In this document: positions 14,572 to 44,230 of the stretch, piece by piece
How the letters are laid out: each line of letters starts with the position of its first letter
Position numbering within the stretch: the stretch's first letter is position 1
NCBI GenBank assembly: GCA_022562795.1
Contig: JADFOP010000011.1
Location: 1-51,856, forward strand
From: Nitrospinota bacterium
GTDB lineage: Bacteria; JADFOP01
Direction of reading: 5' to 3'
Length of the DNA stretch: 51,856 nucleotides
Translations under genes and position numbers: made by a program
The notes under the pieces: model-generated
Told to the model about the DNA's origin: nothing
Database searches by the model: none
What the model saw: only the letters and a program-made list of their open reading frames with translations

Positions 14572-15243
14572 ATGCGTAGCATCGCCAAGCTTTTCGGACG
14601 CCCCCCTTTTGGCCCTCTTCAGGAACATATGCGAAAGGTCCGGGAGTGCTGCGAGAAGATTCCCGGGCTCTTTGAGGTCGTCAAGGAGGGCGATTTCGAG
14701 CGGTTACGGGAACTGCAACGGGAAATTTCCCGGCTCGAGTGGGAGGCCGACGAAATTAAGAACGATGTGCGGGAGCACCTCCCACGCAGCATCTTCATGC
14801 CTGTCGACCGGGCCGATATCCTGGACGTTTTGTCGGCGCAGGATGCTGTCTCAGATTGCGCAGAAGATGTAGGCGACCTCCTGACCCTTCGTCCCCTACC
14901 GTTCCTCGAGGGCTTTAACCCTGAGTTCGAGGCTTTCCTGGACCAGGTGATGGTCTGCTGCCGCATGGGAGCCGATATCACCGAGGAGATGGATAAGCTC
15001 GTTGAGGCCTCCTTCGGCGGGCCGGAGGCCGCCAAGGTCCTGGAGATGGTGAACGAGCTCTGCGAGGAAGAATACAAATCGGACCGTCTCCACCGCGCCT
15101 TTATCCGCAAGCTCTTCACCATCGAGGACCAGACCGACCCCATTAGCGTAATGATGTGGTATCAGGTTTCTGAAAAGGTTGCCCATCTGGCCAACTACTC
15201 CGAACGCATGGCCAACCGGGTGCGCCTGCTCCTGGCTAAGTAA
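14572..15243 (+). CDS. DUF47/TIGR00153 phosphate-transport accessory protein
   Basis: LEWEADEIK, IFMPVDRADIL, QDAVSD; directly upstream of PiT. Confidence 0.88.
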   Translation: MRSIAKLFGRPPFGPLQEHMRKVRECCEKIPGLFEVVKEGDFERLRELQREISRLEWEADEIKNDVREHLPRSIFMPVDRADILDVLSAQDAVSDCAEDVGDLLTLRPLPFLEGFNPEFEAFLDQVMVCCRMGADITEEMDKLVEASFGGPEAAKVLEMVNELCEEEYKSDRLHRAFIRKLFTIEDQTDPISVMMWYQVSEKVAHLANYSERMANRVRLLLAK

Positions 15244-35934: not shown

Positions 35935-36121
35935 CCTGTGCGCCACGGCTCTTTCACCTCCCATTTGCGGGTAAGCCCCATTGTATCAAGGTGTGAGCGC
36001 GCGCTCAAGCGCCATAAAAGCTCCAACCTCTTTCCTTTTGCCCGCCCGGCTCCTACAATGGGCGGACTTGAACGCCGCCTGCCCTCGCCAGGTCCAAGGA
36101 GAGGGAGAACCGAAAGGGGTT

Positions 36122-37642
36122 ATGGAGATAATGCTCCGTCGCACCGCCCGGACCCTGCTCGTAGCCGCCGCTCTGATTGTCGCCTCCGCTCCGGTTGCCG
36201 AATCCGGGCTGCGCCTTGAGGTAGTGGAGCACACCCTGGCCAACGGCATGCGCTTCTACCTCGTGGAGCGGCACACATCCCCCACGGTCGCCTGCCTCGT
36301 AAGCTTTCAGGTCGGCTCGCGGCTGGAGGCCGCAGGCTCCACGGGCATAAGCCACCTCCTCGAGCATATGATGTTCAAGGGGACCAGGCAGGTCGGGACG
36401 ACCGACTACGAGACCGAGGCCCCGCTGATCGCGCGCCTCGACGAGCTCCAGGCCCGCCTGCGCGAGCTTCGCCAGGCGCCCGAGCCCGACCGGGAGGCCA
36501 TCGAAAGGACGGAGGAGGCCGTCTCAGCCCTGGAGGCGGAGCAGGCCCGCTACGTGGTCAAGAACGAGCTCTCGCAACTCTACCGAAGCCACGGGGGGGT
36601 AAGTTTCAACGCCGGGACGAGCAAGGACGGCACCCACTACATGGTCCGGCTTCCTTCGAACAAGCTGGAGCTGTGGGCCTACCTGGAGAGCGACCGGATG
36701 GCCGACCCGGTCCTCCGTGAGTTCTATAGGGAGCGCGACGTCGTTTTGGAAGAAAGGAGGCTTCGGATCGAGACCAGCCCAAGCGGGCTGCTGTGGGAGC
36801 GGTTCATGGCGGCGGCCTACATTGCCCACCCCTACGGGGTGCCCATCATCGGGTGGCCCGACGATGTGGACCGCTTCACCCGCCCTGAGGTCGAGGCCTA
36901 CTTCCAGCGCTTCTACGCCCCCAACAACGCCATCGGGGTGATTGTGGGAGACATCGACCCTGAGAGGGTAATCCCTACGCTGGAGCGGACCTTCGGGGCG
37001 ATCCCACGCCAGGCCCCGCCCAAAGTTCGGGTCCCCTCCGAGCCGACTCAGATGGGAGAGCGGAGGGTCGTCGTCCGCTACGAGGCCGAGCCTCAGCTTA
37101 TGGTGGGCTACCATGTCCCTGCCGTCACCCACCCCGACACATATCCATTAAAAATTTTGGCCGCCATCCTCGCCGACGGGCGGACGAGCCGCTTCTACGA
37201 GCGGCTCATCGACGGCCAGCGGCTGGCGGTCGCGGCCGACGCCGGCGCGGGCATCTGGAAGGACCCGGGGCTTTTCATCATCTCGGCAACTCCCAGGGCC
37301 CCGCACACGGTGGCTGAGCTGGAGTCCGCCTTAGCCGACGAGGTGCGCCGCATCCAGAGCGAGCCGCCCACGGCGTGGGAGTTGGAGAAGACGAGGAACC
37401 AAATTGACGCTTCCGCCGTCCACCAGTTCCGAAGCAACCTGGGCATCGCCTTCAGGGTTTCCCGCGCGGTGTCCCTAACGGGGGATTGGCGCTACATAGA
37501 GCGGGAGCGGGAGCTGCTGAAGGCGGTCACCGCTGACGACGTGCTCCGGGTGGCCAGGGATTACCTCAGGCAGGACAACCGTACCGTGGCAGTCCTCCTG
37601 TCGCCCGAGACGAAAGAGACCGTGAAAGAGGAGGCCCCATGA
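36122..37642 (+). CDS. M16 (pitrilysin-family) peptidase, catalytic subunit
   Basis: HLLEHMMFKGT (HxxEH), NAGT, ERDVVLEE. Confidence 0.92.
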   Translation: MEIMLRRTARTLLVAAALIVASAPVAESGLRLEVVEHTLANGMRFYLVERHTSPTVACLVSFQVGSRLEAAGSTGISHLLEHMMFKGTRQVGTTDYETEAPLIARLDELQARLRELRQAPEPDREAIERTEEAVSALEAEQARYVVKNELSQLYRSHGGVSFNAGTSKDGTHYMVRLPSNKLELWAYLESDRMADPVLREFYRERDVVLEERRLRIETSPSGLLWERFMAAAYIAHPYGVPIIGWPDDVDRFTRPEVEAYFQRFYAPNNAIGVIVGDIDPERVIPTLERTFGAIPRQAPPKVRVPSEPTQMGERRVVVRYEAEPQLMVGYHVPAVTHPDTYPLKILAAILADGRTSRFYERLIDGQRLAVAADAGAGIWKDPGLFIISATPRAPHTVAELESALADEVRRIQSEPPTAWELEKTRNQIDASAVHQFRSNLGIAFRVSRAVSLTGDWRYIERERELLKAVTADDVLRVARDYLRQDNRTVAVLLSPETKETVKEEAP

Positions 37643-39153
37643 GGCGCCGCGGCGCTCTTGCAGCTTCTATACTCGCTGCCCTGTCCCTCGCCATCTTCCT
37701 TCCGGGATGCGATCGGCCCGAGGCCCCAGCCCCATTACCAAGCCGGCCACCGACAACGATGTCGCCCGGCGCAAGGCGCATCGAGGCGATGAAGTTCCCG
37801 CCGCTTAAGCTAACAATCCCGAAGGTCGGCCGGGATGTGGAGCGGCTTGAGCTTGAGGGCGGCCTCGTCCTATACCTCATGGAGGACCACACGCTTCCCG
37901 TATTCGACCTCCAGGCGACCGTCCGGACCGGCAGCCTCTATACCTTCGGCGTAAAGCCCGGCCTGGCCGGCTTCGCAGGCGGCCAGATGCGAGAGGGGGG
38001 CACCGAAGCCCATCCGCCGGAGGAGCTCAACCGGCGCCTTGAGCACATGGCCGCAAGTATCGAGACGGGCGCAGGCGTAGAGTCGTTAACCGCGAGCCTA
38101 AGCTGCCTGGCAAAAGACCTGGACCAGGGGCTCGCTCTCTTCGCCGAGGTGTTCCTTCGACCCCGCTTCGATGAGGCGAAGCTTGAGCTCGCCAAGCAGG
38201 GCCACCTCGAGGGGCTCAGGCGCAGGAACGACCGGCCCGGGGCCATCGCCCACCGGGAGTTCGAAAAGCTCCTCTTCACCGAGCGCCACCCATACGGTCA
38301 CGAGCTTCGTGCCGAAGAGGCTTCGGCCATCTCCCGCGACGGCCTTCTGGCCTTCCACCGCCGGTACGTTCGGCCCAACAATACATGGATGGCTGTGGTG
38401 GGCGACTTCGACCGGGCCACCATCGTTGAGAAGATAGAGCGGGCCTTGAGCGGGTGGGCTAGGGCCGAGACGCCCCTACCTCCGCCCTTGCCGGTCACCA
38501 GGCAACCCATCGGTGGAGTCTACCTTGGAGATAAGGACCTCGCCCAAAGCCACATCGTGGTGGGCCACTACGGCACTGCCCGGCACAACCCCGACCGCTA
38601 CGCCATCAACTTAATGAACTACCTCCTGGGCGGCGGCGGGTTCGCCTCCCGCATCTTACGGCGGGTGCGGGTTGAAGAGGGGCTCGCCTACGTCGCAGGG
38701 TCCTCCTTCCCAACCGGCGGGCCTGTGCTGGGCACCTTCCGGGCCGTCAGCCAGACCAAGCCTGCCACGGCCGAGCGGGCCATTAGGATTATCCTAGAGG
38801 AGATGGAGAGGCTCCGGCGCGAGCCACCCGGCGAGGCCGAGCTCAGCCGGGCCAAAGAGGCTTTCATTAACTCCTACGTCTTCAAATTCGCCGACCCGGT
38901 GGGAAACGTCGTCAAGCTCATGAACCTAGAGTTCTTTGGCTACCCGCCAGATTACTACGAAACCCTTCTGGATAAATACCGGGCAGTCACCCCGGCAGAC
39001 ATTCAAAGGGTCGCTAAAAAATACCTCCACCCGGATAATGCTGCGATAGTCGTCGTCGGCCCTCGTGAACCGTTGGCCGCAAGCCTCGAGGCTTTTGGGC
39101 CCCTCACCCAGCTAGACCTCTCCTTGAAGCCGCTCCAGCTCACACAGCGGTGA
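37639..39153 (+). CDS. M16 peptidase, non-catalytic partner subunit (lipoprotein)
   Basis: Lipobox LPGC, no HxxEH, GGGGFASR...VRVEEGLAY; ATGA overlap. Confidence 0.9.
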   Translation: MRRRGALAASILAALSLAIFLPGCDRPEAPAPLPSRPPTTMSPGARRIEAMKFPPLKLTIPKVGRDVERLELEGGLVLYLMEDHTLPVFDLQATVRTGSLYTFGVKPGLAGFAGGQMREGGTEAHPPEELNRRLEHMAASIETGAGVESLTASLSCLAKDLDQGLALFAEVFLRPRFDEAKLELAKQGHLEGLRRRNDRPGAIAHREFEKLLFTERHPYGHELRAEEASAISRDGLLAFHRRYVRPNNTWMAVVGDFDRATIVEKIERALSGWARAETPLPPPLPVTRQPIGGVYLGDKDLAQSHIVVGHYGTARHNPDRYAINLMNYLLGGGGFASRILRRVRVEEGLAYVAGSSFPTGGPVLGTFRAVSQTKPATAERAIRIILEEMERLRREPPGEAELSRAKEAFINSYVFKFADPVGNVVKLMNLEFFGYPPDYYETLLDKYRAVTPADIQRVAKKYLHPDNAAIVVVGPREPLAASLEAFGPLTQLDLSLKPLQLTQR

Positions 39154-39218
39154 GGGGGATGATTAATATTAAGTAGTGAGGGGTCATCTGGCGTTCGTGC
39201 GACGGGCGAGGGAAGGGG

Positions 39219-40769
39219 TCAGCGCCTCGGCCTGGTGGGCAGCGGCTCGGGGACGTGGGTGGGTAGCCGGACGGGGGCCGTGGGGGCCGGGGATGTGGCC
39301 TCAGGCCGCTCCGGGAGGGCGGCTGATGGCGAATCTTCGCTCTTCGGCAGGTCGGCCCAGCTTATAGCCATGCTGGCGCGGAAGCGGTCGAAATCGAGGC
39401 CCTCTTCCCACTCCAGACTGTAGTCGGCCCGCTCGCCGGGCCTTAGGAATTGGCGCTCGAGCCGCGCGAACCGCTGGGTGTGGAGGTTCCCGCTCATGCG
39501 GTCGAAGAGCCGGATGATGATATCGATGGAGGCCACCGGGTGGTCGCCCACGTTGACGACGAATCCGCGGAGGACGGGCTCGCCCTCCTCGGTCGCCGGC
39601 TTCGGGACGCTCACTTTGAGGGCGTCGCCGGGCTCTACCTCGTCGCCTCCGAAGAAGGTCGGCCTCTTTGCCCCGGACGGGCCCGCATCGCGTGCGGATG
39701 CTTCCCGGAGGGCCTGGTCGGCCTCGGGGTCCTCGATGATGGCCTTGACCTCGATGTCGAATTGGCCCGAGAGCTTCGGCGTGTTGGCCACCGACAGCCG
39801 CCAGGTCCCCCGCTGGCCGGGCTCCAGGCTTTCAGGCTCAGTGTGGGCCTCCACCTCGGATACGGTGCGCTGAGCCCGGTCGAGGAACCTGCAGACGATG
39901 GTTACATACTTGGCGGTAGCCCGCTCGGAGGTGTTGACGACTTGGCCCTCAACCACGTACCGGCCCCTCTCGATGCGGGTGACGGGGTCCTCTACCTGGA
40001 GGATGCCGGTCGAGCCCTGGGCCCGCCGCCGCTCCTTCTCAAGCTTTCTGAGACCTCGTTTGCCCCCCTGGTGAGAGGCGTCGAGGGAAAGGGCCTTCCG
40101 GTAGGCCTCCTCAGCCTGAGATAAGTCGCCCATTGCCTGGTAGACGTCGCCGAGGGCCGCGTGGGTGGTCGGGTCGTTATGCTTGAAGGTGAGGGCCCGC
40201 TTGAGGTGGGCCTCGGCGGCTTGCCACTGGCCCCGCCTAGTGGCGAGCACCGCCAGGGCGATGTCTATGGCCGGGTCGGTGGGATCGAGCCCCTGGGCCG
40301 TGGTGAGCTCCGTCTCTGCCATCCTGGTCTTGCCCTGATCGAGGTAGGCCCGGCCTAGAAGCAGATGTGCCTTCGGGCGCCGAGGATCCAGGCGGACCGC
40401 ATCGAGAAGGACCTCCTCGGCTTCGTCCAGCCGCCCGATCTTCATCAGGACGATGCCGAGGTTAAGGTGGATCGGCACGTTCTCGGGGGCGACCCGAAGG
40501 GCCTCGCGCCACTCGGTCACCGCCCCTTCGAGATCGCCCCTCTCAACCAGAGCAACGGCCCTACGGTTGTGTTCGGCTACGATGTCGAAGCTCTGGGCAG
40601 GGGCTGCAGGGGCTCCGACGGCTGCGAGGGCGCAGAAGAAAAGACCGGCGGCCGCCCATTTCGTGAACCGAGCGGCGCGGGCAGCCGAAACCTTGCGGGG
40701 AAGCCATGTGGGATTGGTCATGCCGGTCCTCTCGGCGAGGGTTATATCACGGGCCTTTGTGGCGGGCAA
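39219..40769 (-). CDS. Exported TPR protein with two FxLYD-type domains
   Basis: Several TPRs, then VEGQVVN...RFLDR and LRGFVVN...RLFDR. Start uncertain. Confidence 0.75.
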   Translation of the reverse strand: MPATKARDITLAERTGMTNPTWLPRKVSAARAARFTKWAAAGLFFCALAAVGAPAAPAQSFDIVAEHNRRAVALVERGDLEGAVTEWREALRVAPENVPIHLNLGIVLMKIGRLDEAEEVLLDAVRLDPRRPKAHLLLGRAYLDQGKTRMAETELTTAQGLDPTDPAIDIALAVLATRRGQWQAAEAHLKRALTFKHNDPTTHAALGDVYQAMGDLSQAEEAYRKALSLDASHQGGKRGLRKLEKERRRAQGSTGILQVEDPVTRIERGRYVVEGQVVNTSERATAKYVTIVCRFLDRAQRTVSEVEAHTEPESLEPGQRGTWRLSVANTPKLSGQFDIEVKAIIEDPEADQALREASARDAGPSGAKRPTFFGGDEVEPGDALKVSVPKPATEEGEPVLRGFVVNVGDHPVASIDIIIRLFDRMSGNLHTQRFARLERQFLRPGERADYSLEWEEGLDFDRFRASMAISWADLPKSEDSPSAALPERPEATSPAPTAPVRLPTHVPEPLPTRPRR

Positions 40770-40790
40770 CCCTCGGCCCAGCGAAAAGAG

Positions 40791-40819
40791 TTGACATGAG
40801 GCAACCGCCCGCCTACTTT
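40791..40819 (+). promoter_or_regulatory. Sigma70 promoter for the M48 operon
   Basis: TTGACA-N17-TACTTT. Confidence 0.5.
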
Positions 40820-42345
40820 TGTTGTCTAACGAAGGGATGAATGATATGAGCCAGATGGATTTGAAGAGGGGAGGTCGAATGCGCCGCGTTTTTCACTGGG
40901 TCGGGCTGGCTGCGGCCGGGCTCCTGGTGGCTGGCTGTGTCACCAATCCGGTCTCCCAAGAGCGGGAGTTCACGCTGGTGACCGAGTCCCAGGAGATCGA
41001 GATCGGCCGGGCGGCCCACGGGGAGATTCTCAAGCAGTTCGGCCAACATCCTGATTCGAGCCTGGAGAAGTACGTAGCCGGAGTGGGAGTGAAAATTGCA
41101 TCGGTCAGCCACAGAAAGCACCTGCCGTATCGGTTCACCGTGCTCGATAGCCCCATCTTAAACGCCTTCGCCCTGCCGGGGGGCGGCATATACGTGACCC
41201 GAGGGCTGCTGGCCGCTCTTAACAGCGAGGCGGAGCTGGCGGCGGTCCTCGGCCATGAGGTCGGCCACGTCACGGCCCGCCACGGCGCCCAGGCCGCCAC
41301 GCGGATCACGGGATACCAGCTCTTGAGCGGCCTGCTGGGTGCCCTGGACACCCGGCTAGCGAAATTGAAGCCCATAAGCGACGCAACGGCGGGTCTCATC
41401 TTCTTAAAGTACGGGCGTGAGGCCGAATATGAGGCCGACCAGATCGGAGCCAGGTATACCTACGATGCCGGTTACGACCCTCGATGGCTCGGGGCCTTCC
41501 TCCGAAGCCTCGCCGCCCAGGAAAAGGGTCGGGATGTGCCGCCGGAGTTTCTCTCGACCCACCCATCGACCCCCAATCGTATCGCTCAAGTCGACGCGCT
41601 GGCTGCTGAGCTCACCGCCTCAGGCACAAGACGGCTGGAGGTAGGCTCCAGCCCCTATAAGCAGCGCCTGGAGGGGCTCATCTACGGACCGGGGCCTCTT
41701 GGCTGGGTCTGGTCGGGAAGGCGGCTGGCCAACCAGGCTCACCGAATCTCCCTCAAGCCCCCCAAGGGGTGGGATGTAAAGACCGAGCGGCTCGCCTTCT
41801 CCATCCAGCACCGCCGCCTCAAAGGCGTAACGGCGGAGTGGCGCGTCCACGAGAAGGTGTCGACATTGCGGGTGGGCCGCTTCGCCGAGAAGATCGAGAA
41901 GCGCCTCAAGCTGGAAGGTGGGAAACGGTCGCCCTTTCGCCTAGGGCCGCTCGAAGGTATTAAGGCAATCTACTTCGGCCGCAGCCAGGGCACTGATGCG
42001 GCCCTCATCATCTACTACGCTATAGACGGGCGGGCCGGGTACACTTTATCGGCCATCGCCCCGGTGGAATTCCGGGACAAGATCGAGCCTGTCTACGACG
42101 TGCTGGCCCGCTCCCTGCTGAAACTGAGGGCCGAAGAGGCCAACGCCCTGCCCATCCAGCGGGTCCATCTCGAGCGGGTGCGTTCCGGCGAGGGGCTTGC
42201 TAAGCTTGTCCGGCGGGTCTATGGTAACTCTGATCACGTGGAGGCCATCGCCCTCCTGAACGGAGTGTCGCCTGAGGCCACCCTCACCGACGGGAGCCTC
42301 ATCAAAGTCGTCCTCCCTTCACCTACCATCAGGAGGTCCGAATGA
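40819..42345 (+). CDS. M48-family metalloprotease lipoprotein with C-terminal LysM-like domain
   Basis: Lipobox VAGC, NAFALPGG, HEVGH, EYEAD, FLSTHP; VRSGEGL...IALLNG. The true start is probably downstream (e.g. ATG 40879). Confidence 0.9.
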   Translation: MLSNEGMNDMSQMDLKRGGRMRRVFHWVGLAAAGLLVAGCVTNPVSQEREFTLVTESQEIEIGRAAHGEILKQFGQHPDSSLEKYVAGVGVKIASVSHRKHLPYRFTVLDSPILNAFALPGGGIYVTRGLLAALNSEAELAAVLGHEVGHVTARHGAQAATRITGYQLLSGLLGALDTRLAKLKPISDATAGLIFLKYGREAEYEADQIGARYTYDAGYDPRWLGAFLRSLAAQEKGRDVPPEFLSTHPSTPNRIAQVDALAAELTASGTRRLEVGSSPYKQRLEGLIYGPGPLGWVWSGRRLANQAHRISLKPPKGWDVKTERLAFSIQHRRLKGVTAEWRVHEKVSTLRVGRFAEKIEKRLKLEGGKRSPFRLGPLEGIKAIYFGRSQGTDAALIIYYAIDGRAGYTLSAIAPVEFRDKIEPVYDVLARSLLKLRAEEANALPIQRVHLERVRSGEGLAKLVRRVYGNSDHVEAIALLNGVSPEATLTDGSLIKVVLPSPTIRRSE

Positions 42346-42896
42346 AGGAGAGCTACAATAGGGCGGTGATAGCAGTCTTGGCGACGATGGGCCTTTTTCT
42401 CGTTCTCAATAGCCCGGCGGCGCCTGTGGGCGTCGAGACGCTCCAGCAGCTGGGTTTATCGCCCGTCCGGGGCATTGTCTTGGCGCCGGACTTCGTTCTG
42501 CCGACTCTCAACGGCGGCGATATGAGTCTGGTCGAGCACCGAGGCAAAGTCGTTATACTTAACTTCTGGACGACCTGGTGACCGTGGTGCCTCAGGGAGC
42601 GGGCCGCTCTCCAAGAACTCCACGAACTCTACGACGGTCGGGGCCTCGTGCTGCTCGCCATCTCTATGGATCGACCGGGCCGATCGGTGGTGGAGCCTTA
42701 CAAGAAGCGTAACCGCCTCACCTTCCCTCACCTTTTGGACGACCGTCTTGAGGTGAGCCGAACCTATGGGGTGCGGGCCACGCCGATGACCCTCATCGTA
42801 AACAAGCAGGGGCACGTAGTCGCCCGCGTCATCGGGGCCAGGCCCTGGGCAGACCCTGAATTTCAGCGACTTTTCGAGGAATTGATTGACGAGTAG
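42342..42896 (+). CDS. TlpA/ResA-like thioredoxin-fold selenoprotein (UxxC), TGA read as Sec
   Basis: Two in-frame ORF-track fragments join across TGA 42579-42581: APDFVLPTLNG...GKVVILNFWTTW-U-PWCLRE...YGVRATPMT...GARPW. Confidence 0.88.
42595..42611 (+). promoter_or_regulatory. Candidate bacterial SECIS hairpin
   Basis: GGGAGCG-GGC-CGCTCTC stem-loop; G-leading loop 20 nt after the TGA. Confidence 0.6.
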
Positions 42897-42945
42897 TGAG
42901 CGCGGCCCGTCTTCGTAAGGATGATTTCGTCCCGCTCGCCGCTCT

Positions 42946-43127
42946 TATCCTGTTGAAAAATCAACGAGTTGGGAAACATCGGCGGCGGCGGGTGTTCCGC
43001 GGGGGGCGAAATTCCTGAAATCTATTGAAATGTATGGGGTTATGTGGTCGCCTAAAGATTAGGCAATCTGCAATAAAGGCTTAAAAAACAGAGCGTTAGA
43101 ACGACATCCAACAGCGTTTTCAACGGG
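42946..43127. repeat. AT-rich element with terminal inverted repeats and three ~25-bp imperfect palindromes
   Basis: CCTGTTGAAAA (42949) / TTTTCAACGGG (to 43127), 10 of 11 complementary; internal TAA..TT..TTA-type motifs. Confidence 0.4.
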
Positions 43128-43209
43128 CCTTTCACAGAAATTGTGGAAAGGTTTCCCCCGGCGGTGGAACGTGAGGAAGAGACGGAATTCGTTCCGGGCC
43201 TCTCGTTCA

Positions 43210-43237
43210 ATTTTCCGGGATTTTCCGGGATTTTCCG
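43210..43237. repeat. Tandem decamer ATTTTCCGGG, ~2.8 copies
   Basis: attttccggg attttccggg attttccg, read directly. Confidence 0.8.
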
Positions 43238-43288
43238 AATATGGCCGTGAAATTATGGTTTTTCCAACTCCCTGAAAATGGGCCGATA

Positions 43289-44230
43289 ATGAAAATGCCT
43301 CTTAGGCTGGTGCGGCGTGGGTTTGCGGCGCTTATGGTCGTTGTGGGCCTGGTGTGCCTAGCACTGCCCGCGCAGGCTCGAGCGGGCCGCCTCAAGGTGC
43401 TCACCACCATTCGCCCCTTGTACGCCTTCACCGTCCAGGTTGCCGGAGAGGCGGCCACGGTGGAAAGCCTCCTCCCGCCGGGGGTGGGTCCACACAACTA
43501 CGCCTTGCGCCCCTCGGACGCCGCTCGGCTCCATGGGGCTGACGTCCTCGTCATCAACGGTCTGGGGCTTGAGACCTGGCTTGAGGGCGCGGTGGATGCC
43601 GTCGGAAAGCCGGGCCTTATCGTCATAGATACCAGCGTTGGCATAAAGCCGTTGCCCCTAAGAGTGCTGAGCGCCCGTCAGGAGAGGCGTGCCGAGGCGG
43701 GCGGCCACGCCGAGGGCCGGTGGGACCCGCATATTTGGCTCGACCCCGTGCGGGCAATCCGCCAGGTCGAGAACATCCGGGATGGACTCGCCAGAGCCGA
43801 CCCTGCCAGCGCGGCCGTCTACGCTTCCAACGCAAAAGAGGCCATCGGGCGGCTCGAGGCGCTCCATGGGGAGATGATGGTCGTGACCGCCCGGTTCCGG
43901 CATCGCGAACTTATGACTTTCCATACAGCCTTCCAGTACTTCGCCCGCCGATACGGCCTCAGTGTGGTCGCTGTGGTCGAAGATGCTCCCGGCAAAGAGC
44001 CGACGCCGAAGTTCCTTGCCCGCCTCCATAAGCTCATCGAACGCCACGGACTCAGGGTCATCTACACCGAGCCCCAGTACCGTTCTCGGGTTGCCGAGGT
44101 GCTGGCCCGGGACATGGGACTTGAGGCAGCCGAGCTCGACCCCGGGGTCACGGGGCCCCTTGGGCCCGAGGCCTACGAGGCGGTCATGCGCAAAAATTTG
44201 AAGGTCTTATCCCGTTTTCAGAGCCCTTAG
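43289..44230 (+). CDS. Zn/Mn ABC transporter substrate-binding protein (ZnuA/TroA family)
   Basis: PHNY, NGLGLE, DPHIWLDP, FHTAFQYF. Confidence 0.92.
   Translation: MKMPLRLVRRGFAALMVVVGLVCLALPAQARAGRLKVLTTIRPLYAFTVQVAGEAATVESLLPPGVGPHNYALRPSDAARLHGADVLVINGLGLETWLEGAVDAVGKPGLIVIDTSVGIKPLPLRVLSARQERRAEAGGHAEGRWDPHIWLDPVRAIRQVENIRDGLARADPASAAVYASNAKEAIGRLEALHGEMMVVTARFRHRELMTFHTAFQYFARRYGLSVVAVVEDAPGKEPTPKFLARLHKLIERHGLRVIYTEPQYRSRVAEVLARDMGLEAAELDPGVTGPLGPEAYEAVMRKNLKVLSRFQSP

Follow-up and report, generated by a model that had tools for sequence, protein, structure and literature searches.

Selenoproteins that are distantly related to peroxiredoxins (Prx) and carry a UxxC active site (U, selenocysteine or Sec) have been catalogued since 2004-2006 and are described in passages of four publications. 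A Sargasso Sea study reports a 'Prx-like protein' family of 22 sequences with distant Prx homology, 21 of them with UXXC (PMC1088965), and Zhang et al. (2006) describe a 'Prx-like thiol:disulfide oxidoreductase' with eight sequences, from Geobacter, Syntrophus and Desulfotalea (PMC1794560). The GOS study also lists a Prx-like UxxC family (PMC2398784), and the entry of a 2026 review equates the Prx-like thiol:disulfide oxidoreductase with PF00578 and a UxxC/UxxU motif (PMC13188914). Here we describe a copy from a 51,856-nucleotide (nt) stretch of a Nitrospinota bacterium (GCA_022562795.1, contig JADFOP010000011.1, positions 1 to 51,856 of the forward strand; hereafter the window). We put at roughly 90% the probability that window positions 42342-42896 (+) are a single intact gene for an exported TlpA/ResA-like thiol-disulfide oxidoreductase of 184 residues (hereafter the reductase) with the active site Sec80-Pro-Trp-Cys83.

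Matched by the published description (PF00578, UxxC), the predicted protein fits the known Prx-like thiol:disulfide oxidoreductase family, of which it is a real yet ordinary member, a new copy from a poorly sampled lineage. Like the Prx-like selenoproteins, it has PF00578 as its best Pfam match, UxxC instead of TxxU, a bacterial host, a candidate selenocysteine insertion sequence (SECIS) within the coding region and homologues with Cys, whereas it differs from them in coming from a GTDB phylum represented by three species genomes and in following an M48 peptidase gene. With ResA (Bacillus subtilis), StoA, TlpA (Bradyrhizobium) and DsbE/CcmG the reductase shares the W-[C/U]-x-x-C motif, a proline facing the active site and a hydrophobic stretch near the N-terminus, but its attacking residue is Sec where theirs is Cys.

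A continuous reading frame across an in-frame TGA

Two open reading frames (ORFs) of the ORF list, 42342-42581 (79 amino acids, aa) and 42648-42896 (82 aa), lie in the same frame. Translation of 42342-42896 (+) with TGA read as U runs from the ATG at 42342 to the TAG at 42894-42896 and gives 184 residues, with U80 (TGA, 42579-42581, +) as the sole odd codon. An earlier note on this DNA had proposed a hidden selenoprotein on exactly this ground, and its factual observation is confirmed: the TGA is the sole interruption, and the motifs APDF (residues 48-51), NFWTTW-U-PWC (74-83) and ATP (146-148) are all found in the translation (...APDF...VVILNFWTTW-U-PWC-LRERAALQEL...VRATPMTLIV...). In the U-P-W-C motif Sec80 would be the attacking residue, and the TGC at 42588-42590 (+) encodes the predicted resolving cysteine, Cys83, which aligns to the second Cys of the CxxC of the solved chains 3kcm and 3hdc. 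The Thr147-Pro148 codons (42780-42785, +) align to V-P of 3kcm and L-P of 3hdc; Pro148 is invariant in a protein alignment and presumably adopts the cis conformation facing the active site.

At the 5' end of the gene we read a Shine-Dalgarno-like AGGAGG (42331-42336, +), 5 nt upstream of the ATG. The translation begins with a charged N-terminus followed by a hydrophobic segment at residues 8-22 (AVIAVLATMGLFLVL; 42363-42407, +), a putative signal peptide or membrane anchor. ResA and TlpA are anchored by their N-termini and have an extracytoplasmic topology; by analogy, residues 8-22 would fit a topology of this type.

The family assignment spans the TGA. Pfam AhpC-TSA (PF00578) matches residues 48-161 at 8.6e-25 (87.5 bits versus a gathering score of 26), and Redoxin, Thioredoxin_8, Thioredoxin_2 and Thioredoxin match the reductase as well. 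The top-ranking NCBIfam models are ResA (91.9 bits; curated cut-off 170), StoA (67 bits; 210), NF041054 (62 bits; 300), TlpA (49.3 bits; 230) and DsbE (38.3 bits; 123), and with all scores well under the cut-offs there is no equivalog-level match to ResA, StoA, TlpA or DsbE. Among solved structures, the closest chains are 3kcm (E = 2.1e-27, residues 48-175, also across the TGA) and 3hdc (7.6e-24, residues 42-174), followed by ResA 4nmu (2.7e-19), StoA 3erw (1.3e-18) and TlpA 1jfu (1.5e-12). The sequence alignments to ResA, StoA, TlpA, 3kcm and 3hdc all include the W-[C/U]-x-x-C motif together with T147-P148. Because the nearest NCBIfam and PDB relatives are ResA, StoA and TlpA but the scores stay under the cut-offs, the reductase is, as far as its sequence tells, a generic member of the TlpA/ResA-like thioredoxin-fold group and the equivalog of no named protein, in keeping with the TlpA-like UxxC selenoprotein that had been proposed.

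Two of these relatives deserve comparison at the active site. Both 3kcm and 3hdc ('thioredoxin family proteins') are Cys forms and read FW[AT][ST]WCP.C versus FWTTWUPWC here. NF041054, a 'ResA-like WAxxUGC motif-containing protein', is only partly alike, matching over residues 46-162: its score lies far under the cut-off, its model has 354 positions versus the 184 residues of the reductase, and the motif here is WTTWUPWC and not WAxxUGC. We also considered a true peroxiredoxin, for which a passage of the 2026 review gives PxxxTxxU as the selenocysteine form of the motif (PMC13188914), and rejected it: the position seven residues before U80 is Leu73 and not Pro, and the resolving Cys stands at +3, as in thioredoxins.

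The selenocysteine column and its downstream hairpin

The expected pairing of Cys with TGA among homologues was borne out. A search of 41 genomes returned four foreign homologues with one TGA inside the match, and a search of 401 genomes gave 11 with a TGA among the 150 matches listed (the window gene's own and 10 foreign ones), with 428 further matches beyond those. In all 12 foreign TGA genes that were fetched, from 10 distant genomes, the TGA stands in the W-U-x-x-C column. Since every one of these in-frame TGAs falls in the same alignment column, the shared position is not a matter of chance. Conversely, the 47 non-Sec homologues compared have a Cys codon at the U80 column in 46 cases and Ala in one. 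The top foreign match among the 400 other genomes belongs to G104 and is itself a Sec form (42% identity, E = 8.7e-41, FWATW-U-PYCLRERPAL), and two paralogues in the same genome as the window gene (G000) carry Cys (IWATWCVPC and LWASWCPAC).

In a quick tree with weak support, the window gene pairs with the G104 Sec form (SH-aLRT 91). The same tree has seven changes of the Sec label versus 11.8 in shuffles, and at least two changes are forced by well-supported branches; the Sec forms therefore seem to be clustered, yet they would make up no single clade.

The second feature tied to the TGA is a hairpin. In the part of the 2026 review that covers it, the bacterial SECIS model has an apical loop of 3-9 nt, an upper stem of 4-16 base pairs (bp), a minimum free energy of at most -7.5 kcal/mol, a distance of 16-37 nt from the UGA and a G as first or second base of the loop, mostly GG or GU (PMC13188914). 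The hairpin GGGAGCG-GGC-CGCTCTC at 42595-42611 (+), with its G-leading loop, lies where the earlier note had placed it and falls within every constraint of the published model, as the note had also held: the loop is GGC, the stem (GGGAGCG/CGCTCTC) has 7 bp, 20 nt separate the TGA from the first loop G at 42602, and the free energy is -8.5 kcal/mol.

Across the family the hairpin follows the TGA. A hairpin counted as strict when its stem was contiguous and 6 bp or longer, its loop of 3-5 nt opened with G and it lay 12-35 nt past the codon. Of the 13 distinct Sec forms 11 have one, versus 0 of 47 non-Sec homologues; the definition is partly post hoc, having been fixed after the first five Sec sequences (six of the later eight carry the hairpin). 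The stems vary in sequence while pairing is kept (GGGAGCG/CGCTCTC, CGAGAGC/GCTCTCG, GGGAGGA/TCCTTCC, GTGTGGA/TTCACAC and ACAGGAG/CTTCTGT). Ungapped RNAalifold on 10 of the 13 SECIS regions (those other than L085, L087 and L056) returned a consensus of five pairs, two of them compensatory; it caught only five because the hairpin registers differ, at 17-20 nt from the TGA. An Rfam scan of the window reported a tRNA-Arg alone and no RNA family at the reductase locus.

Selenocysteine machinery and alternative readings of the TGA

An exported Sec enzyme had been taken to imply selA, selB, selC and selD elsewhere in the genome, the earlier note counting a lack of Sec machinery as a refutation, and this held only in half: selC and selD are in the assembly (G000; 2.15 Mb, 84 contigs, 97.1% complete), selA and selB were not found in it. 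The tRNA-Sec gene (selC) lies at C58:1708-1797, with 77.6 bits versus a gathering score of 47, and is called SeC(tca) by ARAGORN. The selD gene (C41:1-672, -; 307 bits versus a cut-off of 125) is clipped where the contig ends; like the window gene it has an in-frame TGA, in the motif GGGUACK.

The genome also holds further TGA-interrupted genes of selenoprotein families. We scanned for TGA-interrupted frames with redox motifs and passed 18 candidates to Pfam, nine of which gave family matches and nine none; a scan by codon log-odds was discarded as not discriminating, many antisense-looking frames having scored high, and was replaced by the redox motifs and Pfam. Two of the nine are the adjacent glycine reductase genes GrdA and GrdB (L095 and L106; C68:11008-13002, -), both with an in-frame TGA: GrdA reads ECFVU-TAAG and its Pfam match (2e-70) crosses the TGA, and GrdB reads STU-GTC with the TGA just past the domain (1.1e-154). 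The other seven are thioredoxin-fold UxxC genes whose Pfam matches span the TGA (C9:2517, -; C48:5431, +; C78:14812, -; C61:15871, -; C11:22717, +; C29:27503, -; C48:7641, +), namely three glutaredoxins, two DsbA-like proteins, one Trx-like protein and a second AhpC-TSA protein (WUHYC). Together with SelD and the window gene, the nine Pfam-matched genes bring the predicted selenoproteins of the genome to at least 11. A G-loop hairpin (at least 5 bp, G as first or second loop base, 10-38 nt past the TGA, at most -4 kcal/mol) follows the TGA in 10 of the 11 Sec genes versus 664 of 3000 random in-frame sites. The genome would thus represent a small marine-sediment bacterium with at least 11 Sec-dependent genes, mostly for thioredoxin-fold redox proteins.

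Three other TGA-interrupted frames turned up that have no Pfam match. Two near-identical ones (L092 and L101; C38:69426-69617, -, and C14:3-617, +) read DL[IL]CHY-TGA-PIKFDAAVID (CxxU), with a composition that resembles the antisense frame of a duplicated gene. The third (L093; window 14707-14895, -) reads YIFCAI-TGA-DSILRR (CxxU) and, in spite of a fair codon score, is probably spurious.

Beyond this genome, selA was found in 9 of the 10 foreign genomes bearing the TGA form and in 14 of the 40 other genomes of the first sample. The exception, G042 (86% complete, with two TGA forms), is without selA, and its congener has selA. In G008, selA (C2:9847-11223) lies about 9 kb from one of two Sec-form homologues (C2:19825-20232) on the same contig.

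Several observations count against a selenoprotein at 42342-42896. First, neither selA nor selB was found in the assembly with the profiles TIGR00474, PF03841, TIGR00475 and PF09107, and tblastn with the SelA and SelB proteins of the same genus gave no match. In two relatives, G001 of the same genus and G002 of the same class, selA and selB are adjacent and divergent next to scpA; in G000 scpA lies at C52:1819-2661, and the place expected for selA-selB (C52:1-2661) is taken up by a cupredoxin-like ORF and a hypothetical gene. Second, the strict hairpin also occurs at 195 of 3000 random in-frame sites (6.5%) in the long ORFs of this genome, the 62-nt fold is unremarkable versus shuffles (z = -0.65), and two Sec forms of one genus, G267 and G109, lack the strict hairpin and have instead a 5-bp CCCUC/GAGGG stem with the loop CGUGCA. 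Third, the nearest full-length relative (P0002, 186 aa, 60-63% identity, one ENA-derived record) has Leu at the Sec column (FWTPW-L-PWC), which may reflect a true replacement of Sec by Leu, an error in sequencing or an artefact of gene calling. Fourth, no ortholog was found in the 85% complete genome of G001. Finally, the support is at the level of sequence throughout, and the contigs of the one RNA library in which the gene was recovered (X17, see below) may derive from DNA.

By itself the hairpin is thus weak evidence for a Sec codon, and at the level of the family the sequences make it strong. The best match in G001 (L028, C760:19935-20408, -; 34% identity) has both cysteines replaced by Ala (HFWATW-A-PP-A) and would be a redox-dead thioredoxin-fold protein.

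As to the missing genes, we conclude that this is a Sec-using organism and that selA and selB most likely reside in a part of its genome that the assembly does not cover. We consider such a gap the likelier explanation because the genome carries nine TGA-interrupted genes of selenoprotein families besides selD and because a genome of the same genus has selA-selB. A genuine loss is conceivable, given that an assembly of 97.1% completeness contains neither gene and that the place next to scpA is otherwise occupied, but we hold it to be highly improbable. Sec-tRNA for at least 11 genes would in that case be made and delivered by a route so far undescribed in bacteria.

Sequence variants of the gene bear on whether its downstream half still evolves as coding sequence. 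L074, a separate record from a metagenome, matches the gene at 98% identity across 426 coding bases and has the same TGA and hairpin; 11 codons differ, nine of them synonymously, and downstream of the TGA all three changes are synonymous. A more distant variant from metagenome run X17 (about 92% identical) differs at 27 codons (11 synonymously) and contains neither a stop nor an indel; no change is listed for it in 42549-42688, where the active site and the hairpin lie. This conservation argues against decay of the downstream half, which the earlier note had named as grounds to give up its reading, and with it against a pseudogene in which TGC or TGT of a former CxxC reductase mutated to TGA. 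Such a nonsense mutation, which the absence of selA and selB from the assembly, the unproven read-through and the lack of an ortholog in G001 would all allow, is also hard to reconcile with a TGA at the same column in 12 genes of 10 distant genomes, with the presence of a conserved hairpin that fits the SECIS model and with ten other selenoprotein-family genes in this genome that carry TGA at the Sec position of their family. We therefore regard a pseudogene as very unlikely.

Slightly less probable still is that the TGA is a true stop, so that the product of the locus would be an N-terminal peptide of 79 residues, perhaps alongside a second protein of 82 residues that starts at the GTG at 42648. 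ORF calling with table 11 yields exactly these two pieces, and databases hold C-terminal orthologue pieces as proteins in their own right: the nearest relatives in a large protein collection (78% and 74% identity) are 102 and 101 aa long and start right after U-x-x-C, the longer one being entered at NCBI as 'peroxiredoxin family protein [Nitrospinota bacterium]'. Neither piece is a whole thioredoxin fold, however; the matches to Pfam and PDB extend over both sides of the TGA, and the intervening 66 nt are in frame and encode the conserved U-P-W-C-L-R-E-R-A-A-L shared with full-length homologues. The truncated records agree instead with the miscalling of split genes that had been suspected. Gene callers routinely split such genes in two, and in the resulting cut orthologue records the catalytic residue, and with it the selenoenzyme nature of the protein, is lost.

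We give less credence again to a UGA that is read through as something other than Sec, whether by near-cognate insertion of Trp or Cys or by a local recoding independent of SelB. It would do without the selA and selB that the assembly lacks, but TGA is the commonest stop in this genome and terminates 484 of 1120 long ORFs, so that there is no genome-wide reassignment and the code is standard. The column aligns to the catalytic Cys of the homologues, tRNA-Sec and SelD are present, and selA accompanies the TGA form in 9 of 10 other genomes.

The stretch is present at half or more of the sampled words in 16 metagenome runs labelled marine, marine-sediment, sediment or plain metagenome, one of which may be the source sample. 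Contigs from four of them and four studies, X2, X4 and X7 (labelled 'DNA?', mean word depth 17-23) and X17 (RNA library), cover 42579-42581, for which no change is listed, and all T, G and A changes in the per-run summaries were traced to rows elsewhere. Because L074 and the contigs of these four runs keep the TGA, with TGC or TGT, another refuting sign named by the earlier note, in none of the contigs, an assembly or sequencing error behind it is ruled out, and nothing was found in favour of one. We conclude that the earlier note's reading of 42342-42896 as a selenoprotein gene is supported overall.

Gene neighbourhood and a proposed mechanism

The reductase gene follows two tandem M16 peptidase genes, a gene for a TPR protein and an M48 peptidase gene, and is itself followed by ZnuABC. 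The M48 family metallopeptidase (ORF at 40819-42345, +; Pfam Peptidase_M48, 6.9e-36) is a probable lipoprotein; its translation contains HEVGH and a lipobox-like LVAGC, and its nearest NCBIfam models are BepA (119.5 bits) and LoiP (45.4 bits), both below their cut-offs. The M48 stop codon (TGA, 42343-42345) and the reductase start codon overlap as ATGA, and because of this overlap the reductase appears to be co-translated with the upstream protease. A scan of 40600-43300 for promoters and terminators gave none exceeding shuffles. The apparent co-translation suggests a role for the reductase in the maturation or quality control of envelope proteins, and reductase and M48 protease may form a dedicated envelope quality-control pair. 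A functional tie of this kind is drawn from the present genome alone, since an M48 neighbour was found at none of the eight homologue loci examined, which speaks against it. The M16, TPR and Znu neighbours are likewise not next to homologues at these eight loci, apart from one weak ZnuC-like ABC match.

Other Sec forms point to a possible source of electrons. Immediately downstream of the Sec form, both G104 (L109:4615-5385, +) and G042 (L111:3234-4109, -) have a CcdA/DsbD_TM gene; in G104 it is followed by COX2 farther along, with one more gene between, and in G042 genes for a multihaem cytochrome-like protein and DoxX are close by. In the window, no cytochrome c maturation or Sco/CoxB genes stand beside the reductase gene. 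The single CcdA/DsbD_TM gene of G000 (C61:60777-61433; 59.5 bits versus 27.1) adjoins the closest Cys paralogue of the reductase.

On this basis we propose the following mechanism. The UGA at 42579-42581 would be decoded by Sec-tRNA(Sec), which SelB would bring by binding the hairpin, itself part of the coding sequence, 20 nt past the UGA. Sec80 would act in the extracytoplasmic space, its selenolate attacking a disulfide (or a sulfenic acid) of a substrate protein, and Cys83 would resolve the mixed selenenylsulfide. The oxidised U-C pair would probably be re-reduced by the only CcdA/DsbD-type carrier of the genome, fed by cytoplasmic thioredoxin, so that electrons could pass from cytoplasmic thioredoxin to CcdA, on to Sec80/Cys83 and finally to disulfides of envelope proteins. 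These envelope targets may be substrates of the neighbouring M48 protease.

Upstream of the protease, the M16 pair and the TPR protein (window 35981-40769) form, with the M48 and reductase genes, a cluster of probable envelope proteases.

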